Shown here: one piece after another, positions 3,776-44,075 of the stretch | Layout: each line of letters opens with the position of its first letter | Numbering within the stretch: position 1 is the first letter of the stretch | Assembly: GCA_003990765.1 (NCBI GenBank) | Contig: RBNJ01000072.1 | Location: forward strand, 1 to 44,075 | Origin: Jimgerdemannia flammicorona | Lineage: Eukaryota | DNA: 44,075 nucleotides | Reading direction: 5' to 3' | Program-made: the position numbers and the translations under genes | Notes under the pieces: generated by a model | What the model was told of the DNA's origin: nothing | What the model saw: only the letters and a program-made list of their open reading frames with translations | The model's database searches: none

Positions 3776-4251
3776 TGTAACATGGTGGATGCTTACTCTT
3801 GAAAGTACGTTGGATTTCTGTATCTTGAAAACTTGATCCTTCTGACTCTTGCAGAGTCTCTTGAAGTTGTAAGGGAGGGTGGGTGAGTTCGAAGTATATC
3901 TGCCCACAGGCTTACTAGTTTCTTTGCTATCTCTTTGCTTTGAACTATTTTGATCTGAGGTTTATTCACTCTAAGATACTGGGTTATTTATACAAGTTTG
4001 CTAGCTATGAGAGAGTGGCTAAGTAATAAATGAGTCATTTGGACTTTGTCGAAACATTTGGACAATATCTAAATACTATACTAAATTGGAATGTTCGATT
4101 TGGATAATGTCTAAAATTTAGACAATGTCTAAGAATTTAGACAATGTCGAAATCAAGGACTGCTAACTATAAGGTTATACTACTTTGGGACTGGGTGCAA
4201 TCAAGTGTCTATTCCCTATTTCCTTCTTCCAAATTTGGCTGTACCATCACA
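3776..4251 (-). repeat. 3' LTR of copy A
   Basis: TGTAAC...ATCACA termini; direct repeat of 10022-10498; purine run AGAAGGAAG immediately upstream on the minus strand. Confidence 0.95.
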
Positions 4252-4288: not shown

Positions 4289-4750
4289 CTATTCAAACTC
4301 CCAGGCTTTAATGGTCTGTATGGTCTTGTACTGTACAATTTGCTGTATGACTGTTTCTCAATGATGTCTCTTCACTTTCTCGAAGTTGGTGGGGGTTACA
4401 CCTCTCAGGTGGTCTATCGCTACTTCATCTTCTCAGAATAACTTGTGGATCCTTTTGGCAATAGTGATCTGTGAGTGGGAGAGTTGACACTCGGCAATCC
4501 AGTCCTCCTTGGTCTTTGCTGGATCTTGATTGAGCACCTGTCCAAGCTTGAAGTACTCTTGGAATTCTGCCCGATATTGATAGGCTCTAAAGTGCAAGAT
4601 CTGAGAGAGAAGAGTCTGTACAATACTCTGAATATCCTCATAGTATGCCTCTATGGTCAAAGGCTCAGTGGTGTGCCATTGTCTTTCGATGGCTCTTTGG
4701 GCAGCACTAGTGATCTTGAGTGCCATTGCAGTACTTTTGTTACTGACCAT
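4289..4750 (-). pseudogene. ORF3 of copy A, 153 codons, unknown function, two premature TGA
   Basis: Colinear with the intact 17397-17858 ORF; reading through the stops gives ...KRIHKLF*EDEVAIDHLRGVTPTNFEKVKRHH*ETVIQQIVQYKTIQTIKAWEFE. Confidence 0.85.
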
Positions 4751-5933
4751 GATATTTCTTAAGTTGGTTTTGGTGAATGGTGGTGGGGATTATTGTGCCT
4801 GAGAGTTTTCGTAGCCAAAAGGTAGTCCCTTTTATATCTTGCACAAGGTAAGATCCTTCCCACTTGGGCTTCAGTTTTCGTGACCATGAATCTTCTACCA
4901 TATTCTGATACACTAGGACCTTGTCTCCTATCTTGATAATCTCCAAGGGCTTGTGGGTCTTTTCCGCATTCCTCTGTTGTAGTGTCTGCACCTTGGTTAT
5001 GTAATCCTCAGCCTTCTTCCTGATTTGGTGTAGTCTCTGTATTTCCATGTCCACATGTTTCCATACAGCATCTCTATTGAATGATAGGGTTCCTTGAGAA
5101 TATTCTTCTCCAAACAGCATTTCTTGAGGGGTAAAGTGGGTGCTTTGTGATTGGATATCTCGGAGAGCAGATAATGCTATTGGCAGATAGTGATCCCAGT
5201 TCTCATAGTTATCACAGATCTTAGCAATAACATTCTTGAGGGTTTTGTTGGTCCTTTCTACTTGTCCGTTTCCTTGAGGGTGATAGGCTGTGGTCTGAAT
5301 GTGCTGGATCTTGTACTTCTTGTAGAGAACCTCAAAGAGCTGGTTCACGAATTCTGTTCCTCTATCTGTAGTTACTTGTGTTGGGGTCTTGAACTGGTAG
5401 ATGATTTCCTTGTGGAAGAAATTGGTGATTGACTGTGCATTGGCTTCCTTGAGGGGTCCTGCTTCTATCCACTTCATAAAAAGGTCTATGATAATAATAA
5501 TGTATCAGTTACCAGTTAGGGTCAAGGGTAGAGGGCCGATTACATCTATTGCTATATGGGCAAATGGTACTGGTTCTATGTGTACTGATCCTGGGGCTTG
5601 ATTCCATTGGTCTTGTTTCTGTTTCTGGCATTTGTCGCATGTCTTGACAAATTGTCTGATATCTTCCTCCATTCCTGGCCACCATATTGTTCTTCTTGCC
5701 TTGTCATATGTATTCATTCCTCCTAAATGGCCAAGTTTGTGTACTGATTTCATTGCTTGCTCCTTCTTGTATTCTGATATGACCAGTAGTTTTCCTTTCT
5801 TCAGTGTTTCTCCATCGATTTTGAATTGTTTCCATATCCTGTTGATAATCGTTTGTATACATTCTTCCAGATGTTGGGGCATCTTTCGCTGTCCCAGGTA
5901 TGTAATAATTCCATAGTAGAGCTCCTTATTCAT
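4740..5933 (-). pseudogene. Integrase of copy A in its own ORF (MNKELYY...KKYHGQ), with an internal stop
   Basis: HHCC (HKLGH...CDKC), D (AIDVIGP), D (TDRG), E (VERTN) and GPY-like KWEGSY motifs; no chromodomain. Confidence 0.92.
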
Positions 5934-8900
5934 GATTGATTTGTTGGTTAGAGGTAGTTCGAGATGTCCGTGAGAGAGCATCTGTATTGGAATTTGTTCT
6001 TCCAGGGCAGTGTACAATGGTTACATTATAGGCTTGTAACTTCATTATCTATCTGGCATAGATTCCTTTAGGTTGTCCAGTTGTCAGTAGCCAGGTGAGA
6101 GCTGAGTGGTCCGTCTGGATGGTGAAGTGTCTTCTGGCCAGATAGTAGTGGAACTTTTCCACAGCCCAGATGACTGCAAGGCATTCCAACTTGTAGGACT
6201 TGTATTCTTTTTCAGCCCCTCGGGTTCCATGGCTAAGATATGCAATGACATACTCTTTTTTGTCTTCTTTTTGAGCTAGGACTGCTCCCAGTCCTTGTGT
6301 GCTTGCATCTATCTGAAGGATAAATTCTTGGGTCCAATTGGGTCATCTGAGGATGGGTGCCTGAGTTAGTCTGATCTTGAGTTCGTCAAATGCTTTTTGT
6401 TGTCTGCCAATCCACTGGAACTTGGTATCCTTCTTGTTGAGTTTGTAGATTGGACCTGTGATGTTGGAGAATCCTCTAATGAATCTGCAATAGTAGGAGG
6501 CAAGTCCCATGAAGGCTTGGGCTTCTGTGACAGTAGTGGGCCTTGGGTATGCTACTACTGCTTATATTTTGAGGGAGTCCGTGTGTGTTCCATCTCAATT
6601 GATAATATGGCCAAGATAGGAGATCTCGATTTCTGCAAACTTGTACTTCTTGGGTTTGATATAAAGGCCATGTTGTCTTAGTCTCTCCATTATCTGCTGT
6701 ATGTGCTGCAGATGTTCCTCAGGTGTCTTGCTGTAGATGATTATATCATCAACATAGACCATCATCCATCTTCCCATGTCATAGTGGAAGATTTTATTCA
6801 TCATTTGCTGAAAGCTTGCTGGTGCATTGCACATTCTGAATGGCATTCATAGGTAGATGTAGGTTCCGTCTGGGGTGATGAAGGCTGACTTTTCACTTGC
6901 CATCTCTGTGAGTCCGATTTGGTGAAATCCTGAGTATAAGTCCAAGGTGCTGTAGTACTCTGCTTTATCTCCCAGTGTTATAAGGATGTCACTGATGAAC
7001 GGCAGTGGTTGGCGATCCTTCTTAGTAACTGCATTGAGCTTTCTGTAGTTGACACAGAGCCTTGGGGCAAATTCTCCAGGTTTGCTTCCTTTTTTCGGGA
7101 CTAGTACAACTGATGAAGACCAGGGGCTGCTGGCTTCTTTGATGATACCAGCTTCTTCCATCTGCTTGATTTCTTTTTTGAGCCATTCTCAGTAGGCTGG
7201 CGGGATGGATCTTGCCTTCTGGTAAATTAGTTCAGTGTCTCCAGTATCTACCTCATGATAGTAGTGTGGGGTCTTTCCCTTGATATCCTTGAAATCCATG
7301 GCAAGGACATCCTCAAATTTGTGGAGTATTTTCTTGAGTTCCTCCTTGAGTGGGAATTCATCTCCAATAGTGTAACTATGCTTGCTTGTGTTTTCTTCCT
7401 TCTTATGCTCGAGTTCGGTGATCTTGGTGCTGGTGAATACTCCTCTTCCTGTGGATCTGAATCCTTTCTTTCCTCTTTTCATTTCCTCCAGATTCTTGAC
7501 TTCTATGATCCTTGGCTGTATGATTGAGAAGATCAACATCTGTACCAATCAGTCCTTCTTCTTGACTGGGAATGAAATTATAGGATTGTGGTTCCTAGCA
7601 ATGAGTAGAATTTCTCCAGTATAGTCTGAATTAATGACTCCTCCTTCAATTGTGATTTCGCTTCTAGCCAGGCTGCTTCTTGTCTTGAGAATCCCAACAT
7701 GATCCTTTGGGATAGTCATCTCTAGTCCAGTTGCAAGTAGGGTGGTTGTCTGGGGTTCGAGTATAGTTTCTTCTACTGTAGCAATGTCCATTCCGGCTGT
7801 GTTTTCTGACTTGTATTCTGGCAAGACTGCATCAGAGTGGATCTTTCGAATCTTGACCTTGATTTCTTCTTCATTATCACTGTCCTCCAGGAGGGCTGGT
7901 GGTTCATCATCTTCCTCCTTCTCTTCTTCTCTGATCTGTTTTTCAAGAGCTTTCTGCCTTCTTTCCTGGTAGATCTTCTTGGTTCCAATGGTGCACTGGT
8001 AGCAATCGTTGATATGCTCTATACAGTACATCTTGATTCCATGAGGATAGACTCCTTGTTGGGCATAACCTTCTGCGATCTTCTTGCACACTCATCCATT
8101 CAACTTTCTTCTTCTTTGGAGTAGTCACCATATAAGCTTCCTCTTGCTCACTCTCTTCTTCCTCCATATCAGGCAGGACTCCTTTGTTGATGTTGATGGG
8201 AATTCATATCTTCTGTCCCCGGTAGGTGATCTGCATCTTCTGAGCATTGAGATCAATTACCGCCTTGGCTTTATGAAGCCATTGATTACCGATGAGGATG
8301 TTATAGTTGGTGGCATTGGTTACGATTACATCTACTGGAATTGTTGCTCCTCCGATCTTGATGGGAATATCTCGGATCTTTCCCAGAGGTGTGGCTCTTA
8401 TGCCATCGGCTGTGACGAATACTAGCTTAGTTGCTTCTTCCACATCCCAACCTAGGTGGTCCACTGCCTTCTTACTGAGGAGACATCCTCCTGCTCCTGT
8501 ATCAATGATGGCTTCAAAGATTCCATCTTCGATTTGGTATGTTGCATAAGCAGAGGTTTTGTGATTATCCTCACTTTCTTCTCCTGAGTCCTCTTGAACA
8601 TTATTGGTCTCAGTTATCTTCCATCCTTGTTTCTTGGTTGTTTTGGCAAGTCCAAACCTCATTTGCTGTCTGAATGTTGGGATTTCTGCAAGCTGACCAA
8701 AGGTTGCATAGACCTTTTGTTGACTGAGATCCTTGAAGATATCATACTTGAAGGTCTTGGTCTTGCAAAGCTTCTTTTCTTTTTCTCCTTCACTGGCTGG
8801 AGTGGTTCCTTGGATGATATCTTGAACTACTTACTCCAGCTTGATATCTTGGTCCATCTCTTTGGCTTGGCTTTCTGTGGCAGTTTTCATCCATTTTTCC

Positions 8901-9907
8901 ACTGGGTTCTTCTTGAGTCTTCTTGGTAGTCTCTTGTAGGGTTCTTTGCAAGCATCCTTCTTAGTGGTCTGAGCAGGATAGGCCTCCCATTCCTCTTCAT
9001 CAGATTCTCTGATTTCTTCAAAGGTGATTGTATTGGCCTGCTCCTTGTTTCATGTGGCATTGCTTGGTTGAGCCTTGCATTTGGTTTCACTCATACATTC
9101 ATAGGAGTAGTGGCCTTCTTCTCCGCAGCTGTAGCAGGTACCTTTCTTCTTATCTGAGGTGGTGGCAAACTTCTGAACAGGGCGGTGATCTCTTCCTCGG
9201 ATTTCCTTTACCACATCTCCCAGGTGGGCAGTCATTTCAGCAAACCTTTTGGCAAGTTCCTCCATAGGGTCACTGTTCTTTTGCTGCTCTGTAGCTTTTG
9301 GCTGAGGTGTGTTTCGATTGATCATTGTGGTTGGGATCACACTAGTTGCCTTGAGTGCCTTGATTCTGACTCCTGTAACTCTCTCCATTGTGTGGTCTTG
9401 TGGGTGTCTGGCTATCCAGTATCACTGAGCATAGGTGACCTTCTGTGGCAGATCCAGAATCACTGGTGATGAGTGGATGGCCATGGCTATTTCTGGATGG
9501 ACTCCTTTCATGAAGGTTGCTTCGGCTACTTGATCTCGGATAGCAGCAGCATAATCTGCAAGGATTATCTGATATCGAATTCTGGTATAGAATGTGTTTG
9601 GATCCTCACTCATTCCTTGGCATGTTGTGTTGAGCTGATCCTTTAGAGCTTGCTTGATCTTGTCTGTGTAATATGTATTTCGGAGCCAGGTCTTCTGTGC
9701 TGTCAGTATGGTATCGGCATCATTTCCTGCATGGGTTGTGGCTGTGAATGCTGCTCTGGCAGGGCCTCGTAGGCTGAAGAGCATGAGGGCTACTTGCTGT
9801 GCTGCTGTCAGAGTCCTTACGGCAGCATACTGCTCAAAATCATCAATGAAGGTGATGATTAATTCATCTGAGGTATATTCATGGAATACTGGCAGTCTCA
9901 TATCCAT
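5926..9907 (-). pseudogene. gag-PR-dUTPase-RT-RNaseH polyprotein of copy A (stops, plus an 11-bp deletion near 8092)
   Basis: CYSCGEEGHYSYEC knuckle, IIDTGAG protease, SPWSS, LDLYSGFHQI, YVDD and RNase H ending DALSR. Confidence 0.95.
7447..7863 (-). pseudogene. dut: dUTPase domain, copy A
   Basis: Trimeric dUTPase motifs AGMDI, RSSLA, GVINSDYTGEI, VQMLI and RGKKGFRSTG. Confidence 0.93.
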
Positions 9908-10021: not shown

Positions 10022-10498
10022 TGTAACATAGCGGACACTTACTCTTGAAAGTACGTCAGATTTCTGTATCTTGAAAACTTGACCATTCTGACTCCCACAG
10101 AGTCTCTTGAAGTTGTAGGGGAGGGTGGGTGAGTTCGAAGTATATCTGCCCACAGGCTTACTAGTTCCTTTGCTATCTCTTTGCTTTGAACTATTTCGAT
10201 CTGAGGTTTATTCACTCTAAGATACTGGGTTATTTATACAAGTTTACTTGCTATGAGAGGGTGGCTAAGTAATAAATGAGTCATTTGGACTTTGTTGAAA
10301 CATTTGGACAATGTCTAAATGCTATACTAAATCGGGACATTCGATTTGGATAATATCTAGAAATTTAGACAATGTCTAAGAATTTAGATAATGTCGAAAT
10401 CAAGGACTGCTAACTATAAGACTATACTACTTTGGTACTGGGTGTGATCAAGTGTCTATTCTCTATTTCCTTCTTCCAAATTTGGCTGTACCATCATA
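10022..10498 (-). repeat. 5' LTR of copy A
   Basis: Direct repeat of 3776-4251; terminal CA decayed to TA. Confidence 0.95.
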
Positions 10499-11648: not shown

Positions 11649-12115
11649 TGTGATAGTATAGCCAGATTTGGAAGAAGGAAATAGGGAATAGATACTTGAT
11701 CACACCCAGTTCTAAAGTAGTATAGCTATATAGTTAACAGTCCTTGATTTTGCAACTTGCTAAATATTTCGCAAAGTGCAAGATCAAGTTCCCCAATATA
11801 GTATAGCATTTCGCAACTGGCGAAACATTTCGCAAAGTGTTAAATGACTCATAACTTAGCCACATAACTCAGTAATCATCTCATAGCTAGCAAACTTGTA
11901 TAAATAACCCAGTATCTTCGAGTGAATAAACCTCAGATCGAAATAGTTCAAAGTAAAGAGATAGCAAAGGAACTAGTAAGCCTGTGGGCAGATACACCTC
12001 GAACTCACCCACCCTCCCCTGCAACTTCAAGAGACTCTGTAAGAGTTAGAACAGTCAAGTTTTCAAGATACAGAAATCTGACGTACTTTCAAGAGTAAGT
12101 GTCCACTACATTACA
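11649..12115 (+). repeat. 5' LTR of copy B; ATGACTCAT site ~11844, TATAAATA 11899-11906, AATAAA 11925-11930
   Basis: Direct repeat of 17896-18362. Confidence 0.95.
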
Positions 12116-12229: not shown

Positions 12230-15200
12230 ATAGATATGAGACCACCAGTATTCCATAGATATACCTCAGATGAATCGATCATTACCTTCATTGTTGATTT
12301 CGAGCAGTATGCCACTGTAAGGACTCTGACAGCAGCACAGCAAGTAGCCCTCAGGCCCTTCAGCCTACGAGGCCCTGCCAGAGCAGTATTCATAGCTGCA
12401 ACCCATGCAGGAAATGATGCCGATACTATACTGACAGCACAGAAGACCTGGCTCCGAAATACATATTATACAGATGAGATCAAGCAAGCCCTGAAGGATC
12501 AGCTCAATACAACATGCTAAGGAATGAGCGAGGATCCAAACACATTCTATATCAGAATTCAATATCAGATAATCCTGGCAGATTATACTGCTGCTATCTG
12601 AGATCAAGTAGCCGAGGCAACCTTTATGAAAGGAGTCCACCCAGAAATAGCCATGGCCATCCGCTCATCACCAGTGATTCTGGATCTGCCACAGAAGGTC
12701 ACCTATACTCAGTGATATTGGATAGCCAGACATCCACAAGACTATACAATGGAAAGGGTCACAGGAGTCAGAATCGAGGCACCCAAGGCAACCAGTGTGA
12801 TCCCTACCACAATGATCAATCGGAACACACCTCAGCCAAAAGCTACAGAGCAGCAGAAGAACAGTGACCCTATGGAGGAACTCACCAAAAGGTTTGCTGA
12901 AATGACTGCCTACCTGGGAGACGTGGTAAAGGAAATTCGAGGAAGAGACTGCCACCCTGTTCAGAAGTTCACCACCACCTCAGACAAGAAGAAAGGCACC
13001 TGCTATACTTGTGGAGAAGAAGGCCACTACTCCTATGAATGCATGAGCGAAACCAAGCACAAGGCTCAACCAAGCAATGCTACATGAAACAAGAAGCAGG
13101 CCAATATAATTACCTTTGAGGAGATTGGAGATTCTGATGAAGAAGAATGGGAGGCCTATCCTGCTCAGACCACCAAGAAGGATGCTCACAAAGAGCCCTA
13201 CAAGAGACCACCAGGAAGACCCAAGAAGAACCCAGTAGAAAAGCAGATGAAAACAGCCACCAAAAGCCAGACTGAAGAGATGGACCAAGATATAGAGCTG
13301 GAGCAAGCAGTTCAAGATATCATCCGAGGAACTACTCTAGCCAGTGAAGGAGAAAAAGAAAAGAAGCTGCACAAGATGAAGACCTTCAAGTATGATATCT
13401 TCAAGGACCTCAGTCAACAAAAGGTCAATACAACCTTTGGTCAGCTTGCAGAAATCCCAACATTCAGACAATAAATGAGGTTTGGACTTGCCGAAATAAC
13501 TAAGAAACAAGGATGGAAGATAACTGAGGCCAATAACGCTCAAGAGGACTCAGGAGAAGAAAGTGAGGACAATCGCAAAACCTCTGCTTATGCCACATGC
13601 CAAATCGAAGATAGAATCTTTGAGGCCATCATTGATACGGGAGCAGGAGGATGTCTCCTCAGCAAGAAGGCAGCAGACCGCCTAGGTTGGGATGTAGAAG
13701 AAGCAACTAAGCTGGTATTTGTCACAGCCGATGGCACAAGAGCCACACCTCTGGGAAAGATCTGAGATGTTCCCATCAAGATTGGAGGAGCAACCATCCC
13801 AGTAGATGTAATTGTAACCAATGCCACCAATTATGACATCCTCATTGGCAATCAATGGCTTCACAAAGCCAAGGCAGTAATCAATCTCAATGCCCAGAAG
13901 ATGCAGATCACCTACCGGGGACAGAAGATACGAATTCCCATCAATGTCAACAAAGGAGTCCTGCCTGATATGGAGGAAGAAGAGAGTGAGCAAGAGGAAG
14001 CTTATATGGTGACTACTCCAAAGAAGAAGAAAGTCGGATAGATGAGTGAAGAAGAATGGTGCAAGAAGATGGCAGAAGGCTATGCCCTACAAGGAGTCTG
14101 TCCTCATGGGATCAAGATGTACTGTATGGAGCATATCAATGATTGCTACCAGTGCACCATCAGAATCAGGAAGATCCACCAGGAAAGAAGGCAGAAAGCT
14201 CTTGAAAAACAGATCAGGGAAGAAGAGAAAGAGGAAGATGATGAACCACCAGCTCTCCTGGAGGATAGTGATGATGAAGAAGAAATCAAGGTCAAGATTC
14301 GAAAGATCTACCCTGATGCAGTCTTGCCAGAATACAAGTCAGAAAATGCAGCCAGAATGGACATCACTACAGTAGAAGAGACTGTACTGGAACCCCAGAC
14401 AACCACCCTACTTGCAACCGGATTGGAGATGACCATCCCAAAGAATCATGTTGGGATTCTCAAGACAAGAAGCAGCCTGGCTAGAAGCGAAATTACAATT
14501 GAAGGAGGAGTCATCGATTCAGACTATACTGGAGAAATTCTACTCATTGCTAGGAATTACAATCCTATAATCCCATTTCCAGTCAAGAAGAAGGACTGAT
14601 TGGTGCAAATGTTGATCTTTCCGATCCTACAACCAAAGATCATAGAGGTTAAGAAGCTGGAGGAAACAAGAAGAGGAAAGAAAGGATTTGGATCCACAGG
14701 AAGAGGAGTATTTACCAATACCAAGATCACCGAACTTGAGCATAAGAAGGAGGAAAACACAAGCAAGCACAGCTACACCATCGGAAATGAATTTCCACTC
14801 AAGAAAGAACTCAAGGAAATACTCCATGAATTTGAAGATGTCCTTGTCACAGATTTCAAGGATATCAAAGAAAAGACCCCACACTACTATCATGAAGTAG
14901 ATACTGGAGACACTGAACCAATTTATCAGAAGGCAAGACCTGTCCTGCCAGCCTACTGAGAATGGCTCAGAGAAGAAATCAAGCAGATGGAAGAAGCTGG
15001 CATCATTAAAGAAGCAAGCAGCCCCTGGTCCTCACCTGTTGTACTGGCCCTAAAAAAAGGTAGCAAGCCTGGAGAATTCACTCCAAGACTCTGTGTCGAC
15101 TACAGAAAACTCAACATGGTTACCAAGAAGGATCGCCAACCACTGCCCCTCATCAATGACATCCTCATAACACTGGGAGACAAAGCACAATACTACAGCA

Positions 15201-16221
15201 CCTTGGACTTATACTCAGGATTCCACCAAATCGGACTCACAGACATGGCAAGTGAAAAGTCAGCTTTCATTACTCCAGACAGAACCTACGTCTACCTATG
15301 AATGCCATTCAGAATGTGCAATGCACCAGCAAGTTTCCAGTGAATGATGAACAAAATCTTCCGCTATGACATGGGAAGATGGATGATGGTCTACATCGAT
15401 GATGTAATTATCTACAGCAAGACACCTGAGGAACATCTGCAGCATATACAGCAGATAATGGAGAGACTAAGACAACATGGCCTTTACATCAAACCCAAGA
15501 AGTGCAAGTTCACAGAAATCAAGATCTCCTATCTCGGCCACATCATCAACCAAGATGGAACACACATGGATCCCCTCAAGATACAAGCAGTGGCCGCATA
15601 CCCAAGACCCACCACTGTTATGGAAGCCCAAGCCTTCATGAGACTCACCTCCTATTATTGCAGATTTATTAGAGGATTTTCTAATATTGTGGGACCAATC
15701 TACAAACTCAACAAGAAGGATACCAAGTTCCAGTGGACTGGCAAACAACAAAAAGCATTTGATGAACTCAAGGTCAGACTGACCCAGACACTCATCCTCA
15801 GAAGACCTGACTGGACTCAAGAATTCATCCTACAGACTGATGCAAGCGCACAAGGACTAGGAGCAGTCCTAGCTCAAAAGAAAGATAAAGTGGAGTATGT
15901 CATCGCATACCTCAGCCGCAGAACCCGAGGAGCTGAAAAAGAATACGAATCCTACAAGTTGGAATGCCTTGCAGTCATCTGGGCTGTAGAAAAGTTCCAT
16001 TACTACTTGGCTGGAAGATACTTCACCATCCAAACGGACCACTCAGCTCTCACCTGGCTCTGACAACTGGACAACCCAAAGGAATCTATGCCAGATGGAT
16101 AATGAAGTTGCAAGCTTATGATGTAATGATCGTACACTGCTCTGGAAGAACCAATGCTAATGCCGATGCCCTCTCATGGACACCCCGAAGGACCCCAACC
16201 CTATAAAATTGCCATGAATAA
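12230..16221 (+). pseudogene. gag-PR-Cys-rich-dUTPase-RT-RNaseH polyprotein of copy B (one frame broken by stops; 1-bp deletion ~16060)
   Basis: ORF fragments starting at 12236, 12749, 13247, 13475, 14042, 14600, 14987 and 15344 all share one frame; motifs CCHC, DTG, YIDD, QTDASAQGLGAVL, TDH and NADALS. Confidence 0.95.
14285..14701 (+). pseudogene. dut: dUTPase domain, copy B
   Basis: ARMDI, RSSLA, GVIDSDYTGEI, VQMLI and RGKKGFGSTG motifs. Confidence 0.94.
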
Positions 16222-17407
16222 GGAGCTCTACTACAGAATTATCACATATCTGGGACAGCGAAAGATGCCCCAACATCTGGAAGAATGGATACAAACGATT
16301 ATCAACAGAACATGGAAACAATTCGAAACTGATGGAGAAACACTGAAGAAAGGAAAACTACTAGTCATACCAGAACACAAGAAGGAGCAAGCAATGAAAT
16401 CAGTACACAAACTTGGCCACCTAGGAGGAACAAATACGTACGATAAGGCAAGGAGAACAATATGGTGGCCAGGGATAGAGGAAGATATCAGACAATTCGT
16501 CAAGACCTGCGACAAATGCCAGAAACAGAAACAAGATCAATGAAATCAAGCCCCAGGATCAGCACACATAGAACCAGTACCATTCACCCACATTGCAATG
16601 GATGTAATTGGCCCTCTACCCTTGACTTTGACAGGCAACCGATACATCATCATCATCATAGACCTCTTTACAAAGTGGATAGAAGCGGGACCCCTTATGG
16701 AAGCCAATGCACAGTCAATCGCTGATTTCTTCCACAAGGAGATCATCTGCCAGTTCAAGACCCCAACACAAGTAACTATAGACAGAGGAACAGAATTCGT
16801 GAACCAGTTCTTCGAAGTTCTCTACAAGAAGTACAAGATCCAGCATATTCAGACTACAGCATATCACCCTTAAGGAAACGGACAAGTAGAAAGGACCAAC
16901 AAAACTCTCAAGAATGTTATTGCTAAAATCTGCAATAGCTATGAGAACTGGGATCACTATCTACCAATAGCATTATCTGCTCTCTGCGATATCCGATCAC
17001 AAAGTACCCACTTCACTCCTCGAGAAATACTGTTCGGAGAAGAATGTTCTCAGGGAACCTTGTCATCCAATGGAGATGCTGTATGGAAACATGTGGATAT
17101 GGAAATACAGAGACTACACCAAATCAGGAAGAAGGCTGAGGATTACATAATGAAGGCACAGACACTACAATGGAGGAATGTGGAAAAGATCCACAAACTC
17201 TTGGAGATTATCAAGATAGGAGATAAAGTCCTGGTGTATCGGAATATGGTTGAAGCTTCATGGTCACGAAAACTGGAGCCTAAGTGGGAAGGACCTTACC
17301 TTGTGCAAGATATAAAAGGAACCACCTTTTGGCTACAAAAACCCTCAGGCACAATAATCCCCACCACCATTTATCGAAACTGACTCAAGAAATATCATGG
17401 TCAGTAA
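16214..17407 (+). pseudogene. Integrase of copy B in its own ORF, with premature stops
   Basis: Same length (1194 bp) and motifs as in A; KWEGPY. Confidence 0.92.
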
Positions 17408-17858
17408 CAAAAGTACTGCGATAGCACTCAAGATCACTAGTGCTGCCCAAAGAGCCATTGAGAGACAATGGTGCACCACTGAGCCTCCGACCATAGAGGA
17501 GTCTTATGATAGTATCCAAAGCATCATACAGACTCATCTCTCTCGGATCTCACACTTCAAGGCCTATCAGCGTCAGAACAAATTCCAAGAGTACTTCAAA
17601 CTCAGCCAAGTACTCAACCAAGACCCAGAAATGACCAAAGAAAATTGGATCACAGAATGCCAGCTCTCCTATTCCCAGATCACCATTGCCAAGAGAATCC
17701 ACAAGCTATTCCGAGAGGATGAATCAGCACTAGCCCACCTGCAAGGAGTGACTCCCTCAGACTTCGACCGAGTCAGGCGATACTATTGGGAAACAGTGAT
17801 ACAACAAATTGCGCAATACAAGACCATACAGACCATTGAAGCTTGGGAGTTTGAATAG
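17397..17858 (+). CDS. ORF3 of copy B, intact 153-aa protein of unknown function between IN and PPT
   Basis: Open ATG-to-TAG ORF with a same-length homolog in A; no hydrophobic TM or signal stretch visible. Confidence 0.85.
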   Translation: MVSNKSTAIALKITSAAQRAIERQWCTTEPPTIEESYDSIQSIIQTHLSRISHFKAYQRQNKFQEYFKLSQVLNQDPEMTKENWITECQLSYSQITIAKRIHKLFREDESALAHLQGVTPSDFDRVRRYYWETVIQQIAQYKTIQTIEAWEFE

Positions 17859-17895
17859 ATGCTTTAGAGACGAGATCATCTATTCAGGAGGAAGT

Positions 17896-18362
17896 TGTGA
17901 TAGTATAGCCAGATTTGGAAGAAGGAAATAGGGAATAGACACTTGATCGCACCCAGTCCCAAAATAGTATAGCCACATAGTTAACAGTCCTCGATTTCAC
18001 AACTTGCTAAATATTTCACAAAGTGCAAGATTGAGTTCCCCAATATAGTATAGCATTTTGCAACTGGCAAAACATTTTGCAAAGTGTTAAATGACTCACA
18101 ACTTAGCTACATAACTCAGTAACTATCTCATAGCTAGCAAACTTGTATAAATAACCCAGTATCTTCAAGTGAATAAACCTCAGATCGAAATAGTTCAAAG
18201 CAAAGAGAGAGCAAAGGAACTAGAAAGCCTGTGGGCAGATACACCTCGAACTCACCCACTCTCCCCTGCAACTTCAAGAGACTCTGCGAGAATCAGAACA
18301 GTCAAGTTTTCAAGATACAGAAATCCAATGTACTTTCAAGAGTAAGCATCCACTACATTACA
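17896..18362 (+). repeat. 3' LTR of copy B
   Basis: Direct repeat of 11649-12115. Confidence 0.95.
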
Positions 18363-21830: not shown

Positions 21831-23434
21831 GTCTATACAGCTAGTAGTCAGGATCATACTCAATTTAGTATTTAGGTAACTATACTTATTGTGACTGAGA
21901 GGCAGAGATATAGAAGAGATGGAGGGGTATGGATATTTAGTATCTGAATTAGATAAGATCTCAATAACTGTATCTATATTGGCATTGGTTTTTTATAAGT
22001 AATATATAATAACTGCATTATAGATATAATCTACAAATAAAGATTTTTTTAAGTTGCCTAATGGTTAATAACTAAATAAAAGCTAACTGATTAGTCAGAA
22101 TAGTAAAGTAAGTTCTGAAAAGATAGTAGTGGAACTTTTCTACTACTCAGATAACTGCAAGATACTCTAACTTATAAGATTTATATTCTCTTTCTCCTTT
22201 GTTAGTTCCTTAGCTAAGATATATAATTATATATTTGATCTTATTCTTCTTTTGTATAAGAATACCTTCTTTTCAATTGTACTTATATCTGCCTACAGAA
22301 TGAACTCTTAAGACTAGCTAGATCTTCTCAAGATAGGTGCCTGAGTTAAACAGACTTTGAGAGATTCAAATTCTTGTAATTGTCTGCCAGTCTATTAAAA
22401 TTTAATATCTTACTTAAACAATTCTTAGATAGAGCCTAAAATGTTGGTAAATTCTTTAAAAAACCATCTATTATAGATAGTAAGTCCTATGAAGGCTTGA
22501 GTCTCAGTAACTGTAGTGAGTCTTGAATAGACTTCAACTACTTGAATCTTGATAGAATCTGTATAGATTCCATCTGATTGATAATATGTCTAAGATAAGA
22601 GATCTCAATTTTACCAAACTTACACTTCTTTAGCTTGACAAATAGATTATGATCTCTCAGTTTTTGCAAAATTTGGTAAATATAATTCAGATATTCCTTA
22701 TATATTTTATAGTAAATAACTATATTATCTCTATAGACTATGATCCTTTTTTCTATTTCTTCTCAGAATATCTTATTTATGTATTTTAATAATATATCAG
22801 AGTATTGAACATTCCAAATAGTATTTGCAGATAGATATAGATTTCATTCAGAGTAATAAAGGCTAACTTTTTACTAACTTCTCTACTGAGGCCAATTTTT
22901 TATTCCTGAGTATAAATCCAAGGTAGTGTAGTATTATACTTTATCCCTTAGTATTACCAGGATGTTACTGATGATAGATAGTAGTTAGTAATTCTTCTTG
23001 GTATCTTTATTCAGTTTTCTATAGTCTATAGAGAGCTTTGGAGAAAATTCTTCTAGCTTGTTTTCTTTTTTTATAGCTAGTACAATTATTATGAACCAGA
23101 GATAGATATTCTTCTTAATAATACTGATTTCTTCTATTTGCTTGATTTTCACTCTGAGCTATTTATAATATACTAGTGAAATTAGTCTTGTCTTTTGAAA
23201 GATAGGCTTAGTGTCTTCTATATCTATATTATAATAGTAGTATTGTATCTTTTCTTTGATATTCTTGAAATTAGTAGTAAGAATATCTTTAAATTTATAT
23301 AGCAGCTTTTTAAGTTCCTTTTTGAATGAAAATTTAGTTTCAATAGTATAGCAGTAATTCTCTGTGATATTCTCTTTCTTGTTATCTAATTAAGTAATCT
23401 TAGTACTTATAAAAACTCCTCTTTTTGTAGATAC

Positions 23435-23882
23435 TATGATGGTCAATCCAAATTAGTAATATAAATTAGGGGAATTAGACATTTGATTGTGGTACCTAAA
23501 TCTGATTTCCAAATATAGCTTAGCCTTATCGATAGCAGCCATATTTCACCAGAGCAGAAACTTTAATATTGGCAAAGTTTTGAGAGATGGTGAAATCTTC
23601 ACAGATGTTAAAAGATTCAATACTGATAGAAAATGACTCATTACTTAGCCACCTTATAGCTAGCAAACTTGTATAAATAACCCAGTATCTTAGAGTGAAT
23701 AAACCTCAGATCAAAATAGTTCAAAGCAAAGAGAAAGCAAAGGAACTAGTAAGCCTGTGGGCAGCTATACTTCAAACTCACCCACCCCTGCATCCTGAGG
23801 ACTCTGTGGAGTCAAAGAAGTTCAAGTTTTCAAGATACAGAAATCTAACATACTTCTAAGGTTCTACTATCACTACTTTACA
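23435..23882 (+). repeat. Solo LTR, third variant of the A/B LTR family
   Basis: 3' half nearly identical to the A/B LTRs (ATAGCTAGCAAACTTGTATAAATAACCCAG...); termini TATGAT/TTACA; perfect TSD ATAC (23431-23434 / 23883-23886). Confidence 0.9.
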
Positions 23883-24396
23883 ATACAAATCCTCTTCTTT
23901 CTATTTTCTCTAGCTTTGTAACTTCCAAAATCTTGGGTTTTAATATTAAAAAGTTAAGCATTTATATAAGATAATTTTTTTTCTTGACTCTAGGAGTTAT
24001 AGTTTCTAGTAATAACTCTACTTTTGATCAAAATTTCACTATTGGCTAGACAGCTTCGTATCTTGAGTATTTCAATATAGTTTTTAAAAATAGTTATCTC
24101 TAGTTTTATTATAAGTAAAGTTGATGTCTGAAGTTGAGAATTATTTGCTCAACTAGCAATATCTATTCATATTACTTTTTCTAACTTATATTATAGGACT
24201 TTATCAGAATAAATTCTCTAAATCTTGACTTTAATTTTCTTTTCATCATCACTATTCTCTATAAGAGCTGATAGTTCATCCTTCTGGTTTTTCTATTCAT
24301 ATAGCTTCTATCTTCTTTTCTTCTTCCTATAATGAATTTTATAGATCTTGGTAATATATTAGTAATACTTATTTATAAGCTTCATATAGTATATGT

Positions 24397-27300
24397 TGTG
24401 ATGAATAGAAGAAGCAATTTATTCAAAATGCATATATTGTATATTTTATATATTACTGATGAATGATATAAAACTGATAGAATGATATATGACATAAAGT
24501 TATATACTTACATATTGAGTTGCTATCCCAATAGAATATTCAATTTTTTTTTTTTTTTATAGTTACTTATACATCTTTATTACTATAATCTATCTATAAG
24601 AGCAATATATAATTTATAGATCCATCTGACCACTAACAATTATACCTAAAGAAAGTTAATTAAAATATCTAAAACCTGTTAACTAATATCAATTTTCTAC
24701 TACATCCCTCTCTCACCTAGTATTAAATAATCCTGACTCCTTAAGATAATGTCCTGTATCTTCTTTACTGCCCCCAGCTCCTGCCATCTCTCCTGGTATT
24801 ACTACCCTTTTATTATCTCTCTCAGAAGCCAATGTCATTGCTCTATCCACTTCCTGATCTACATTTAATACTCTTTCTTGAAGACCTACTATCAGTATAA
24901 TATCATCAAGACCCACACTACTAAGATCCACCCAACACCCTCCAAACATAATCAATTTCCCCCATTATTCTCCTTCAGATGACCACACTGATAGCATCTC
25001 TGGGCCACCCTCTCTCAGATCCCTAGTATTTCTCCAAAGTCTACCAATAACCTTCTACTCTAGGGTAGGCTATCAAGATATACTCTGGAGTCTGAATCAC
25101 CTCTCCAGAGATTTCATCATCATCATACTATTTACAATCTCAGCAACTATCAGCTATCATCCAGCCTATCCAATAGTTCAACATCATATTTCTTCTCAAG
25201 AACTACCACTATACTTCTCAATATCTAGGTAGCACTATTTGATAAAATATAGCTGTCCAACTCCAGACCCAACTCCACTCTTAAATCTCCCAAAGTCCAG
25301 CTGTCTGCCAATAAACTGATCACCTCTCAAGTGGTCTCATCTTAGCCTATTCTATAGTTTCTTCCAAGAAATAATTCCACAATATCCTATCATCTACTCT
25401 GAGCAACTCTGGCTACTACTACCCCTGCTCAGAGTCAACATCCTCTCCTACCTCAATTCTATAGCTAGCCAGGCCTCTATAATACTCCACCAGAATCCTT
25501 TATACCTCATTCTGCCAACTATTCCAACTTGGAGCAACCCTTTCTCTCCTCACCACTAGGACAGAACCTAATCTCCCAATTGTCCATTTCAGTCTACTCT
25601 AACCTCCCTCTCCTAACTCTATAAGGCAGTGTCCCCACCAGCCCCTAAGAGTCTTTAGCTACTATCAGAATTCTACCAGCCCCAGGCCCCATCAGCAATT
25701 GGTAGCACTAATGCCTCCCATCTAATCTCTACCTTCCTCACCAAAGCTACTCTTCAATCACTTTCTTCAGCCACTGCACCACCTATCCAGAGAAGTCTAA
25801 ATAATAACTCAGATATAATAACTTCAGCAACCAGTATATATTCAAAACCACCACTCTCCCCACTAGGAAGTAGTTATGACCAGACTAGTCTATCAGAGCA
25901 CCTTTTCATTTCTGTACTATTCCATACTACCACTCACTTGGCAGGACTGTCCTGAATACTGAGAATCAAATACTCAGATATCTGATAGTCTCTCCAGCAG
26001 GTACCCCTCATTCAAACCCACTCTCAGTCTTCAAAATCAGTACTAAGCTCTAAAGTCTCACATTTTCTCCAATTCAACTTTACTCCTATCAGTCCCTTAT
26101 ACTGTCCAATCTCTTCTCACAAAATGTCCACATCTGTGACATTATTTAACCCAACTACCATATTATCTGCAAAAGCCCCTAACTTCCAAACCACCTGTTC
26201 TACCTTCAGTCTAGTCAGTCATCTTCTTAGTTAGATCAACATGGGCTCTAAAGAGAGAACATAGAGGAGGGGTGAGAGGGGGTCTCTCTGTAGAACATCT
26301 CTACTCAAGACAAACTCTAGACCATACCAGCCATTCATTAAAACTGCACCTCTATAGTCACATACCAGTTCCATAAGCCTTCTAACCTCTTCTATGTCAA
26401 ATCTGACTCTATGCAATACTGCCTCTAGAAAACACTACTACACTCTATCATATGCCTTCTCCTGATCTAAGAAGACCATCCTCCCATCAATCTGGCAACT
26501 TCTACAGCCCCTAAGACATTTTGCACTCAAGCAGTACTGTTCTTTATTTACCATCTCTTTACAAAGCCCCTCTGCTCCTCCCCCACCAGCCTGCCAATCC
26601 ACTGTTACATTCTCCCTGCCAAGACCTTGGAGACCAACTTCTTATCCACATTCAATAGTAATATTGACCTCTAGTTTCACTACACCCTCTTGTAATATTT
26701 TTTCTTAAGAGAATCTAACCCTAAGTTATTATTACTAACCCACTGACCCTCTGTCAATACAAAGTTGCCCATCTCTATAAGTCAGGCCCCAAACTCAGCC
26801 TGGAACTCCTTTGAAAACTCCCAGGAGAGCCTATTTTCTCCAGGTGACAAACTATCTGGTACCTTTTACAAAACTCCCAATATCTTCTCTAAAGATATTC
26901 TGCTTTTTGCTGAAGCCCCCCTCTCTGGCAATACCACTACTGACCAATTACATACTAATAGAGCATTCTCAATATCTAGTACCCTCCCCCACCCTCATCA
27001 CTCCAGAGGGCCTGTTATTGCCCAGAGACCTTCTCCAATATATCCATAACTTCAGAAACTTCAACTCTATCCTCTCATAGAACTGAAGCCCAGCTGTGCT
27101 ATACCTTTCTAGCTTTTAAGACACCAGATAAATATTTGATTGATCACTCTCCTTCTTCCAATCACCAGACCCTCAGACATATCTGCAGGCCATCTACTAC
27201 TCTGTCCTCTACCTCTCTTATATCAACTGCAGATTGACCATCTCTCTAGACAGCCAGTGCCATTTCTTCTCTATTAGTATCCTACCTTTCAATAACTATA

Positions 27301-30300
27301 GCTACTACCTCAAGCCCCTCTCAACTCTCCTCTTTTTGTCCTTTTACTCTTTTCTAGCTATCTCTCCAACATCCTGCCAATAAGCACCCACTAAGTATTT
27401 AAATCTGCCCCACTATTCAGTAATAGACAGACTACTATTTATCTACCTGGCCACTTCCTGCCTGGCCAAGACTACAAATTGTTCCCTTTCTACCAGTCAC
27501 TGGAGTAAGGCTACATTGAGATACCAATGTTCTCCTCCACTACTAACTGCCTGAAACCTTTCATATACTTCAACACTCCAATAGTCAGACTATAAGCACT
27601 ACTATATCTCCACAATATCCAAAACATTATCCCAATGTTCTGCTATCAGAACCCAATCAATCCTCTTCCCCAATAGCCTATTATCTACTAGATGATATCT
27701 AGTGAAGAGCTCTGACTTATCTCCAGCCTGCAGCTATATACTATCTACCAGTCCTATACCTTTTTCTACCTAAAGTCACTGGGACAGTTCCTGGGAGACA
27801 GCAGTACCAGCACTACAATCAGACTAATCCAGAGCATGATCTCATACTATATTAAAGTTCTCCCCCAAAATGTCTAACTCAAGAGCTATCCATTCTTCTC
27901 AAGTCAGTCACTTTTCCACCCATTACTTTTGCTCTTTACTAACTACTGGTAGATATATAGAGTCCACCAAATGTCCATCCCCAGTCTCCCCCTTCAGCCT
28001 TTCTCACACCAGATGACTACTAAAGGTTTTCATATCCACTAGCTTGCCCTTATCAATATTAAACAGAATACCAACTTACCTATTCCAACTAGTACTACTA
28101 AACTATTCCTTACTCTACAACTTATAGTTCTATATATTATAAGCTCTAACTTTCTGAAGAAACACCACATTATACTTCTGGACCTTCAGTCACCAAAAAT
28201 GGTACTGCTGTTTAATTCCATTTTATAGACTATTGACATTGATAGATAAAATTTATAGATTGTCCTTTATTATAAATAGAGAGTTTAAATGTCAACTGCT
28301 ACTGCCACTACCTTCTTAGCTCTAACCTTGATGATGTTCCAATGTTTCTCACAGACCACTTTCTAAATCCACTCTTTATTGATACTACTACAGAAGAAGT
28401 CTATTTGCTCTGATGCTATCTTCTGATATCAGCCATCCTACTATCATCTACCTCATATCCTCTTCCTCCAGGAGGGCTGCCACTATAGCAGTCACCAATT
28501 TTGGCTCCTATATCACTATATTAAGAAATCCCTCACATGCCTCTAGGGATCCTTGAAACACATTAAATTCCTTGATGTCTTCCTCTGCAAGCTCCTCAAG
28601 AACAGCCTGAAACCAACTATCCACCACTATTATCAGAGGCTTCAGGGTAGCAGGCCTAGGGGTTCTGCATAACTTCTAAAGTAATTCTTTATCTGCCAAC
28701 ATATTAGAAGTGATCTTCACCAAATTGTTCTCCTCAGAGACTTTGTCTAGCTGTACCACCTCACCAGCCTCAGAACATTTCCTATATATATTCATAGATC
28801 TGACTATAGTTATATCCGCTATCTGAGTCTCTAGGACCACCTTGATATCTTTTCTAAAACCTGCTTCTCTCACTTCCTCTCCATTGATCTACTTTCTCTT
28901 TACAGGTATATGTATAGAGTCTTCCATTCCCCCCAGCTATGAGAAAGATACTTCAGCTATCTCTACTCCTTTTTTTCAATTTCTGTCAATTGCAGCCCTC
29001 TCAGCCTTCTCTTTAGCAGACCTTTGCAATACTGCCTACAAATGCTCCCAATTCTCCTTATACAATTACCTCCTCTTCTCATCAGTCTCAATTCAGATCC
29101 AATCCTTGGTAAACTCCTCCCATTTCCACTTCTGCAAAGCCTTTACTTCATTATTCTCCTCTAGAGCAATCAATAACTCTTCCTCTTTCTATTCAGAACC
29201 TTTTCTCCTCTAGACCAGATACTTCTGCCCCTCAATATGAATGACCTCAGACCAGTCTTGCTCTAATCCAGTTGTCTTCTTCTCTTCCAACTATACCTTT
29301 ACCTTATAGTTGCTATTTCTCAACTTTATATTCTCCTAGAACATAAATCCAAAATCCACCATCTCACCAAAATCTTCAAGAGTGTTGGCCACTACTGTAT
29401 TGGTCTTCTATCTGCTCAGTTTCAGCAATTCTTCAACCACCAGTTACACTGTATACAGATTTCAACTTAGACATCTTGCTATCCCCACCTTGATATCCTT
29501 GACTATCAGTCCCTTCTTCAAGTTCTTCACAATTGCCTCCTCCTCAACAAAGTCCACCTCAATGGTCTCTACCAATGGAATAAATCTCAGTGACTTAGCC
29601 CTTGCAACCTCCTCACCCTCTAATTGCAGAATCTCTCTTGCCAATAGTTCTAGACTTAATAAATTGGCAGATATTGTCCATATTGATACCAACTTATAAA
29701 AGAATAGATGCACCACCAGCTCACTAGTCTCTATGGCCAGAGTCATCTTATTCTTACTTCCTGAAACTCCTGCCACCACCTCACCAGACACTACTATACC
29801 ACTAGCAGTTATACTCTCAGTTATCATTCTAGCTCCAGGAAAGCCAGTTCTAGTAGTCCTACCCCTGGACCCCTGAACCCTGCTGGGCACCTGACCAGTC
29901 AGCTGACCAGTCACCTGACCTCCCCCCCTGTTCTCTCACTATAGGCCTAGAGACAATCCTTCTGCCCTCTACTACTATACACTAGCTATCTACTCTAGTT
30001 GCTAGCCCCCAACCACCAGTCTGTCTTTCTACCTTACCAACTCTAGCAGCTACTACAAAACTCTTGAGGAGACCTAGGCCAGGCCTCCTCCTCTTCAGGT
30101 ACTTAGAGCTTAATAAACCTTGGCTCATCATAGTATGAAAACTTGACAGATTTTGATAAAACTTATTGTATATTATTGCTAAACTCCTGCTATACCTAGC
30201 ACACCAGTGTAGGCAAAGTGAAAACTTGAAAATATGTTGCTTTTAATGAAAAGATATTCATGTTGCTTAGCTTGCTCTGAGTGGTTTAAGCAAAAGAAGT

Positions 30301-35066: not shown

Positions 35067-35286
35067 TTTGATATATAAGTGTTTTTTGTAAAAGATGTAA
35101 ATTAGTGGCTCATGAGAGACCACAGGTCAATGAACGCAGGAATGTCTTAGGCACTTAGGTCTCGGGCATATTGGTTTCGGATGTATTGGTTTCAGGCATT
35201 GAATAGCTGTCTTCGTTTCGGGTGCCATCGTCATTGCATGGCTTGTCTCAGTCATGAGTAGTAACTTCCACCTTTCAACCTGAGCT

Positions 35287-41279: not shown

Positions 41280-41320
<41 letters not shown>

Positions 41321-44032: not shown

Positions 44033-44035
<3 letters not shown>
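43175..44035. repeat. Tandem duplication of a ~410-450-bp unit containing 15-bp subrepeats (TTCACTGAGATCTCC-like)
   Basis: CAGATTA(T/C)AACTATC..AAAGA(T/C)AGAAAAAAAAGAAAAAAAAAA..CTACCTCTT and ACAATCTCTAACAGTATATAA each occur twice. Confidence 0.8.

Positions 44036-44075
<40 letters not shown>
44036..44075 (-). repeat. Poly(T) run to the window edge, probably a retroposon poly(A) tail
   Basis: Uninterrupted T run of about 40; a similar run lies at 41282-41318. Confidence 0.5.

Follow-up and report, generated by a model that had tools for sequence, protein, structure and literature searches.

The 44,075-nucleotide (nt) contig RBNJ01000072.1 of Jimgerdemannia flammicorona (assembly GCA_003990765.1), referred to in its entirety as the window, is AT-rich, with 23-31% GC outside repeats, and contains two copies of one ~6.7 kb long terminal repeat (LTR) retrotransposon that lie head-to-head, copy A on the minus strand and copy B on the plus strand. 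The integrase (IN) of this element is encoded by an open reading frame (ORF) of its own, whose ATG overlaps the stop of the ORF for Gag, protease, dUTPase, reverse transcriptase (RT) and ribonuclease H (RNaseH), and a third ORF (ORF3) starts inside the last IN codons. An earlier note, made from the letters of the window, had described this layout and offered coupled termination-reinitiation, a +1 frameshift or subgenomic RNAs as routes to IN and ORF3.

Copy B is bounded by a 5′ LTR at 11649..12115 (~467 bp, TG...CA) and a 3′ LTR at 17896..18362. A primer-binding site starting with TGG (TGGTGCC...) follows the 5′ LTR of the element, and the polypurine tract AGGAGGAAG (17886..17894) lies just 5′ of the 3′ LTR. 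ORF1 spans 12236..16221, with its ancestral stop TAA at 16219-16221, and encodes gag (CCHC), protease, dUTPase, RT and RNaseH in one frame; the dUTPase domain (14321-14701; PF00692, E 1e-23) is located between protease and RT, the same position as in copy A. The IN cistron at 16214..17407 (ancestral stop TAA 17405-17407) comprises an H2C2 zinc finger, the rve core and a GPY module. It overlaps ORF1 at junction 1, CATGAATAA (16213..16221), and ORF3 at junction 2, CATGGTCAGTAA (17396..17407). The 153 codons of ORF3 (17397..17858) are intact and in the +1 frame relative to IN. All of these features are on the plus strand. The corresponding features of copy A, all on the minus strand, are the 5′ LTR (10022..10498), ORF1 (5926..9901), in which the RNaseH end is unbroken to CAT GAA TAA at 5934-5926, the IN cistron (4740..5933) with one internal TGA and the C-terminus ...KKYHGQ-TAA, ORF3 (4289..4750) with two internal stops, and the 3′ LTR (3776..4251). 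Identity is 93-96% within the LTR pair of each copy and 87-91% between copies A and B. Copy B is flanked on both sides by ATATAT, a target-site duplication; that of copy A is blurred by decay. As the flanks of A and B differ and each copy has its own LTR pair, the two are separate insertions rather than a duplicated segment.

Pfam scans of the decayed frames, run with stops read as X and with three-frame translation, place zf-CCHC, aspartyl protease, dUTPase, RVT_1 and RT_RNaseH in one frame of the window copies and Integrase_H2C2 and rve in the next (+1) frame. The in-frame fusion of gag to protease-RT-RNaseH proposed by the earlier note is borne out, and the three-ORF layout recurs in intact relatives. 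The protease-RT-RNaseH-IN order, the LTRs, the polypurine tract and the GPY module identify the element as Ty3/gypsy-type; the Pfam scan of both window INs (P0004, P0005) gave no Chromo match, the mark of the chromovirus branch. Both window copies are dead. ORF1 of copy B has accumulated 11 stops up to 16060, plus an early TAA at 16204, and, alone among the copies, lacks 1 bp in RNaseH near 16060, where the others retain an extra A; the IN of copy B contains three decay stops, at 16541, 16871 and 17381. Copy A has 9 stops in the dUTPase-to-RNaseH part, 1 in IN and a frame change between protease and dUTPase.

The two copies have the same sequence at junction 1, which occupies 16213-16221 of copy B and, on the minus strand, 5934-5926 of copy A. 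It reads CAT GAA TAA in the ORF1 frame and ATG AAT AA in the IN frame, and the IN ATG lies one base into it, at 16214 in B and 5933 in A, in the +1 frame. A stop also closes the third frame (TCA TGA), and in the window design ribosomes in either other frame therefore stop on the ATG. In copy A the RNaseH frame continues past the motif DALS for 14 codons (RTSRTTSNQQINHE) to the TAA, and the linker from DALS to the ATG has equal length in A and B although it is far more diverged than its surroundings. These particulars agree with the earlier note, which had also suspected that the TAA at 16204 of copy B is a decayed CAA. Copy A has CAA at this position, and the base is read as C by 37.2 of 37.2 of the covering depth in X1 and 11.7 of 14.5 in X2, X1 and X2 being two sequencing runs (soil metagenome; one organism) whose contigs carry other copies of the element; the suspicion of a decayed CAA is thereby confirmed. 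The frame relation is kept in the contigs of X1 and X2 that cross the junction, where the only indels are a compensating pair in the linker.

A protein search with copy A IN returned 190 proteins of 216-690 amino acids (aa) at E<=1e-3. The best 120 of the 190, from metagenome-type sources, are nearly all 400-450 aa long and 37-72% identical over the whole query. Among these 120, 96 are at least 380 aa long, and 90 of the 96 start exactly at the homologous Met; in 4 further proteins that Met follows an extension of 7-18 residues, and 2 start later, which leaves 94/96 with Met at the column. The Met is also invariant in an alignment of 23 INs. This alignment was used to fetch 80 loci of metagenome DNA, and all relatives discussed below (designated by L numbers) are metagenome contigs. 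Twenty rows are available for junction 1, namely copies A and B and 18 metagenome loci with DNA 5′ of IN and 37-81% IN identity; they were counted as 14 lineages for per-lineage tests. A more distant locus on viral contigs (L081, 26% identity) was left unused.

RNaseH and IN occupy different frames in 20/20 rows, and the RNaseH frame stops -5 to +8 nt from the IN ATG. RNaseH and IN share one frame in 0/20 rows, the arrangement that would be expected of other copies or relatives if A and B had merely inherited the same indel; the usual, if not formally defining, Ty3/gypsy state, in which pol including IN is one polyprotein, is therefore absent from all 20 rows. The RNaseH frame of relatives ends with ..ADALSR plus 10-36 residues (L016 has the variant ADAMS), and an earlier decay stop is present in 3/20 rows (L012, L013 and copy B). 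The IN frame is +1 relative to RNaseH in 7 rows and -1 in 13. Six designs occur at the stop/start: ATGAATAA or ATGAATAG in A, B, L001, L002 and L015; ATGAACnnTGA (ATGn5TGA) in L007 and L009; ATGA in L003, L005/L006, L020 and L026; ATGGATCTAG (ATGn4TAG) in L008/L011; TAATG or TGATG in L010, L012, L013, L016 and L017; and TGAtcATG in L019. Stops occur in the RNaseH frame over IN at a density of 0.042 per codon, the next one at a median of 10.5 codons on, and the chance of a stop in the 5 codon slots around the ATG is ~0.19 per lineage. Such a stop was seen in 14/14 lineages. As the lineages are not fully independent, adjacency being partly inherited, a cautious probability of 0.19^6, or ~5e-5, was calculated from the six designs.

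Relatives with intact reading frames preserve the same organization. ORF1 is uninterrupted with zf-CCHC, protease, dUTPase, RVT_1 and RNaseH in L001 (1281 aa), L002 (1493 aa), L006 (1746 aa), L010 (1814 aa) and L011 (1651 aa), and the dUTPase lies between protease and RT in all five of these intact relatives. IN has no internal stop in L003, L005/6, L007, L008, L010, L013, L015, L016 and L017, and an undamaged IN and ORF3 occur in several loci. The dUTPase-RT-RNaseH segment of L001, used as a query, matched at least 120 proteins. Among the 120 matches listed, the dUTPase-bearing ORF1 homologues lack IN domains in 17/17 cases; 15 of the 17 end 4-32 residues past the RNaseH end motif, one is truncated and one has the dUTPase after RNaseH. 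The RT-RNaseH protein P0351, with its dUTPase after the RNaseH end motif and not before RT, represents a neighbouring element type.

Ratios of nonsynonymous to synonymous substitution rates (dN/dS) against L001 are 0.08-0.12 for IN (0.13 for the first 60 codons) and 0.10 for ORF3, and wrong-frame controls over the IN/ORF3 stretches give 1.15-1.81. IN and ORF3 are under purifying selection. The values between copies A and B are also low, 0.16 for IN and 0.13 for ORF3, which indicates that most of the A/B divergence arose while both lineages were active; the junction shared by the two copies is thus informative. The two ORFs have diverged unequally between A and B, with dS 0.96 and 79.5% nucleotide identity for ORF3 and dS 0.32 and 90.5% for IN, and the 3′ part of the element may be a mosaic produced by recombination between sublineages or may evolve faster.

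Among long proteins, fused RT-RNaseH-IN proteins are at most 33% identical to the query (197 bits for the best), compared with 40-72% for stand-alone INs. Of the 41 fetched loci with IN identity of 36% or less, 25 have RNaseH and IN fused in one frame and 16 are unclear to the motif test; a difference of frame was seen in none. An IQ-TREE phylogeny of IN with 24 rows (18 separate-IN and 6 fused) groups the 18 separate-IN rows in one clade with support 100/99 and a branch length of 0.97, outside the 6 fused rows. Both the junction design and the frame relation switch several times within the clade: the closest neighbour of the window group (+1) is L002 (+1), followed by L003 (-1), and L015, L007 and L009 (+1) group with L008/L011 (-1). 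Monophyly together with these internal switches implies that the split arose once, is old and has survived several rearrangements of the linker. As judged from sequence, the elements form a deep clade with three cistrons, seen mostly in soil metagenomes; it includes at least 190 stand-alone IN clusters, and 14 DNA lineages were checked. In L010:1-8256, IN and ORF3 are succeeded ~500 nt further on by another ORF1, which is complete, and by the beginning of a second IN, an arrangement that may reflect tandem elements that share one LTR or a circular or collapsed assembly.

Junction 2 repeats the design of junction 1 in the window. The sequence CATGGTCAGTAA is identical in A and B and reads CAT GGT CAG TAA in the IN frame and ATG GTC AGT AA in the ORF3 frame. 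Eight loci or copies have an ORF of 114-230 codons in the +1 frame relative to IN, its ATG immediately 3′ of KKY(H), a conserved IN motif, and IN ends 3-22 residues past KKY(H) in most relatives. The distance from the ORF3 ATG to the downstream IN stop varies, being 8 nt in copy A, 17 in L009, 26 in L005/6, 41 in L001, 50 in L011, 53 in L008 and 68 in L010 and L013. The tight overlap in CATGGTCAGTAA is therefore particular to the window's family. Of the two overlaps whose conservation the earlier note had asked about, junction 1 keeps its stop/start adjacency in 20/20 rows; at junction 2 the repetition of the design holds for A and B and the place of the ATG is kept across the clade, and the tight overlap is not.

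The ORF3 proteins can be aligned and share the motifs EFQxYYxxG and IAxRIYxLF...AL.HL.GV. With the window ORF3 as query, BLASTP E-values are 1e-5 for L009 and 1e-7 for L011, and the L010 ORF3 is not matched significantly, so that homology of the L010/L013 type is based on position and profile alignment only. A profile of 8 ORF3s matches 75 cluster representatives at E<=1e-3, 12 of them at <=1e-10; the matches are 49-286 aa long, with one of 455 aa. An AlphaFold2 model from a 34-row alignment is all-helical, with seven helices, a mean predicted local distance difference test score (pLDDT) of 91 and a predicted template modelling score (pTM) of 0.82. Pfam assigned no family to 7 ORF3 sequences, and the protein atlas returned only unnamed or unrelated clusters. 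A Foldseek search of the model against the PDB found nothing (best E 0.38), and VIA-align against 48,161 representative chains reached no more than Z 4.4, less than helical models are expected to score by chance. ORF3 is a real, selected and clade-specific helical protein without a known fold match. Very tentatively, it might be an accessory factor that acts on the element RNA or the pre-integration complex. By analogy to the transactivator (TAV) of caulimoviruses, it could also be a factor that enables reinitiation, a role that appears improbable.

Candidate RNA signals were sought on both sides of the IN AUG. Upstream, RNA structure was rejected as a general signal. Two members of the TAATG subclade have a stable hairpin whose end lies 2-5 nt 5′ of the stop/start, at L010:107-186 and L016:1768-1847; the fold of L010:87-186 has an energy of -30.8 kcal/mol (z -4.3), and the L016 hairpin differs from it in sequence and occupies the same place, inside the conserved peptide ERLPKGPP. 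This hairpin is a lead for that subclade, and it was not seen in the window's own subclade. Downstream, a hairpin is centred ~42-48 nt after the AUG in most lineages; in copy B it corresponds to 16251..16272 on the plus strand, 38-59 nt after the AUG. The most stable 40-nt window at this hairpin beats the background mean in 12/14 lineages (Fisher p 2.7e-4, post hoc), and no other block of the entire IN ORF is as stable as the hairpin in 3/14 (L005, L017 and L019) and also in L001. In the helix formed by columns 38-44 with 53-59, 62% of cells pair, compared with 52 +/- 3 in shuffles (0/500), and 18 cells are changed on both sides, compared with 8.8 +/- 2.4, every slid control being lower. The helix is strong in L001; a G-to-A difference from L001 weakens it in A and B. 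The downstream hairpin is a lead as a candidate signal.

These results suggest the following scheme for expression. ORF1 (1,280-1,800 codons in intact relatives) would be translated as one long gag-protease-dUTPase-RT-RNaseH frame, with IN as the second cistron, its invariant AUG within a few nt of the ORF1 stop, and ORF3 as the third, its AUG inside the last IN codons. Ribosomes that finish ORF1 on the genomic RNA would be incompletely recycled and would restart at the adjacent IN AUG. IN would then be made in smaller amounts than Gag-protease-RT-RNaseH, restart efficiency would take the place of the usual gag/pol frameshift as the dosage control, and the hairpin ~40 nt 3′ of the AUG may help to hold the ribosome. 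ORF3 could be reached by reinitiation after backward movement from the IN stop or from a separate RNA. The available text of a 2023 review (PMC10275272) describes termination-reinitiation after long ORFs in which the restart codon may lie very near or upstream of the stop, and places stop and start within 20 nt in all cases of the termination upstream ribosome-binding site (TURBS) type. Junction 1 falls inside a stop/restart spacing of ~20-30 nt with overlap allowed (-5 to +8 nt, 14/14 lineages), and junction 2 does so only in part. Tight and conserved spacing of stop and start, maintained while frame and sequence change, favours termination-reinitiation for IN, and termination-coupled reinitiation is probably the way in which IN is made. 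The fuller proposition, that the clade is the first lineage of LTR retroelements to have a polycistronic pol and that IN is made by stop-and-restart with a non-TURBS signal, perhaps the downstream hairpin, stands at somewhat short of even chances.

Several observations weigh against reinitiation. When the preceding ORF is 1,300-1,800 codons long, restart usually requires a signal of its own, and the searches revealed none that is general. UGGGA, the calicivirus-type motif 1, is absent from the 100 nt upstream in all lineages (0/14), where the host 18S rRNA may demand another motif. Folds of -90..+10 in the 14 lineages have z-scores from +2.05 to -4.31, with -0.09 for copy A, weaker values for L015, L016 and L017, and only L010 clearly structured; RNAalifold on the upstream region of the TAATG subclade yields -1.1 kcal/mol and no strong consensus structure. 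Downstream, whole-window z-scores are unremarkable and RNAalifold predicts 0 pairs. A second register of the hairpin is unsupported by the test described above, only columns 38-59 passing the controls, and the sequences used for the test, which are related to one another, are those in which the hairpin had first been spotted. The count of IN homologues that start at the Met is partly made by the method, as gene callers pick ATG starts. The distances of 8-68 nt at junction 2 exceed the efficient TURBS-type range, which is ~30 nt in the sections of PMC10275272 that were available. Finally, one X2 contig (depth 3.3; shorter side 21 nt) skips 112 bases, 16101-16212, which would fuse a truncated RNaseH, its end lost, in frame to the IN ATG, and a fused deletion variant may thus exist. 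The ends of the skip, AA..GC, are non-canonical and the motif ATGAA is present at both, and the skip may have arisen by deletion between short repeats or through misalignment.

The rival explanations differ in how they account for the adjacency of stop and start. IN and ORF3 might be translated from RNAs of their own, spliced or subgenomic, produced by an internal promoter or read through an internal ribosome entry site, with the adjacency a product of the compaction of a split pol. The env genes of retroviruses and errantiviruses are expressed from spliced RNA. Positions of the ORF3 ATG up to 68 nt 5′ of the IN stop fit a separate RNA better than coupling, and the failure to find a general reinitiation signal points the same way. 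The ORF1 stop, however, would then be free to drift, yet it is kept within -5 to +8 nt in 14/14 lineages and through six designs; nor is there a splice-like joint at the junction in the contigs, which as DNA are a poor test of splicing, save for the one low-depth AA..GC skip. Taken for IN and ORF3 together, expression from separate RNAs is a credible though unlikely account. For ORF3 itself a separate RNA is at least as likely as restart, which is plausible in the window's family (8 nt) and strained at 41-68 nt. Of the three mechanisms in the earlier note, reinitiation is thus the one that the spacing at junction 1 favours, and subgenomic or spliced RNA persists as its rival.

The third mechanism, a programmed frameshift at the junction, would restore a conventional RT-RNaseH-IN polyprotein. 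Ty3 and Ty1 employ a +1 frameshift between gag and pol, according to the accessible portions of PMC5911963 and PMC5009743, and 28-29 codons 5′ of the ATG are free of stops in the IN frame of the window's family. Across relatives, however, both frame relations occur (+1 in 7 rows, -1 in 13), no heptamer or slippery site is shared, and only 1 and 6 codons are open 5′ of the ATG in the IN frame of L026 and L017, respectively; the Met is invariant, whereas the IN-frame sequence 5′ of it is not conserved. The variable frame relation, the six unrelated junction sequences and the invariant ATG effectively exclude a programmed frameshift, including the +1 event of the earlier note, and the chance that it operates here is very slight. 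A last explanation regards the frame break as a functionless indel inherited by dead copies that were passively amplified or duplicated. Both window copies are indeed decayed, with many stops, and their LTR pairs are only 93-96% identical. The same split is nevertheless found in elements with intact ORFs whose IN is only ~40% identical, in several different junction designs, and the frames of IN and ORF3 are under strong purifying selection; the split elements are monophyletic and apart from fused forms, and the flanks of A and B differ. The intact relatives, the junction survey, the tree and dN/dS refute this explanation, which retains practically no probability.

The closest structural parallels are elements with a dUTPase between protease and RT, which the text available from PMC5408684 and PMC2864245 describes in the bdelloid rotifer elements Juno, Vesta and TelKA and in some basidiomycete Ty3/gypsy-type elements. 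In these descriptions, the bdelloid and basidiomycete elements resemble those studied here in their protease-dUTPase-RT-RNaseH-IN order, CCHC gag, GPY module, lack of a chromodomain and frequent extra ORF3, and Vesta1b and Mag, like ORF1 here, have no gag-pol frameshift. Their pol, however, appears in the available parts of both papers as one gene that includes IN, with no mention of a separate IN cistron, whereas here IN is always a separate ORF. The ORF3 product here, small and helical, is no env, esterase or exonuclease. Language-model features place the nearest IN clusters in Mucoromycota and Rotifera; this is a lead only and does not represent alignments.

Among other LTR retrotransposons, Tf1 has a single ORF with gag fused in frame to pol, and the Ogre elements of legumes encode pol domains in separate ORFs, with a break between protease and RT at an intron that is spliced out. 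Here pol is instead broken at the RNaseH/IN boundary, where an invariant AUG sits on the stop. Consecutive ORFs of Caulimoviridae have ATGA-type overlaps. As reverse-transcribing, Ty3/gypsy-related agents with consecutive, briefly overlapping ORFs on one RNA, Caulimoviridae resemble the present elements; unlike them, they have no integrase, no LTRs and a virus-encoded transactivator. Their polycistronic reinitiation depends on TAV, as stated in the part of PMC10275272 at hand. No TAV-like protein was found here, and Pfam, atlas and structure searches detected no similarity of ORF3 to anything named.

Other systems of reinitiation include SART1 (UAAUG), CHV1 (UAAUG), HvV190S, calicivirus and the influenza B TURBS (PMC10275272 and the CHV1 abstract, as far as their available text extends), all with the stop and restart overlapping or a few nt apart, as in the ATGA, TAATG and ATG..TAA arrangements here. 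In the available text of that review SART1, a non-LTR element, is the sole retrotransposon named, and it needs a downstream RNA structure; a downstream hairpin is likewise the only recurring structure at junction 1. Calicivirus and influenza B TURBS differ from the elements studied here, in which UGGGA (0/14) and a general upstream pseudoknot or hairpin were not found. The upstream ORF is far longer here than in the known systems, and the split lies within the pol of an LTR element (RNaseH/IN) rather than between ORF1 and ORF2 of a non-LTR element or between capsid and polymerase. No report of a separate IN cistron or of reinitiation in an LTR retrotransposon was found in the searchable literature, the scope of which leaves out subscription journals, Repbase reports and supplements, and the accessible sections of the recoding review PMC5009743 contain neither. 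The class of element and the type of translational mechanism would therefore both be known ones, while their combination and its position between RNaseH and IN were not found described.

The clade bears on how pol products are apportioned and annotated. LTR retroelements and retroviruses typically make RT and IN as one polyprotein and regulate dosage by frameshift or readthrough between gag and pol. A large and old clade with IN as its own cistron is an exception to this polyprotein rule that selection maintains, and if reinitiation is indeed the mechanism, its efficiency rather than a gag/pol frameshift would set the ratio of Gag-RT to IN. The six junction designs would provide a natural and divergent set of eukaryotic stop/restart sites that bears on reinitiation after long ORFs. 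Intact members of the clade will be classed as defective by annotation pipelines that require a single RT-RNaseH-IN ORF or take a change of frame for a sign of decay. ORF3 adds a conserved family of putative accessory proteins with a confidently predicted model that matched no known fold.

The remainder of the window contains further repeats; Rfam and tRNA scans of the window found nothing. A third, far older and very AT-rich remnant of a related element is present at 22041-23432 (minus strand) and 23650-23891 (plus strand). Its RT fragment at 22541-22762 (RVT_1, E 4.5e-6) is ~71% identical to copies A and B, and an adjoining LTR fragment is 93-96% identical to the A and B LTRs. Differences among the element copies are mostly transitions, which suggests decay of the cytosine-deamination type that feeds the 24% GC background. 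A tandem array of at least 10 copies of ~98-130-bp units, 61-88% identical and with the core CTTAACTAAGGTATATAT, occupies 31825-33176, and a hAT-type transposase remnant with a BED zinc finger (E 7.6e-7) and a weak match to the Hermes DNA-binding domain lies at 33645-35126 on the minus strand. The segments 24000-30000 and 36000-40000 show very strong GC skews of opposite sign (-0.42 to -0.46 and +0.40 to +0.48), and a weak endonuclease/exonuclease/phosphatase fragment is located at 36598-36810, inside the second block; the two blocks may represent decayed non-LTR elements in inverted orientation to each other. Poly-T tracts longer than 30 T are present at 41280-41320 and 44030-44069.

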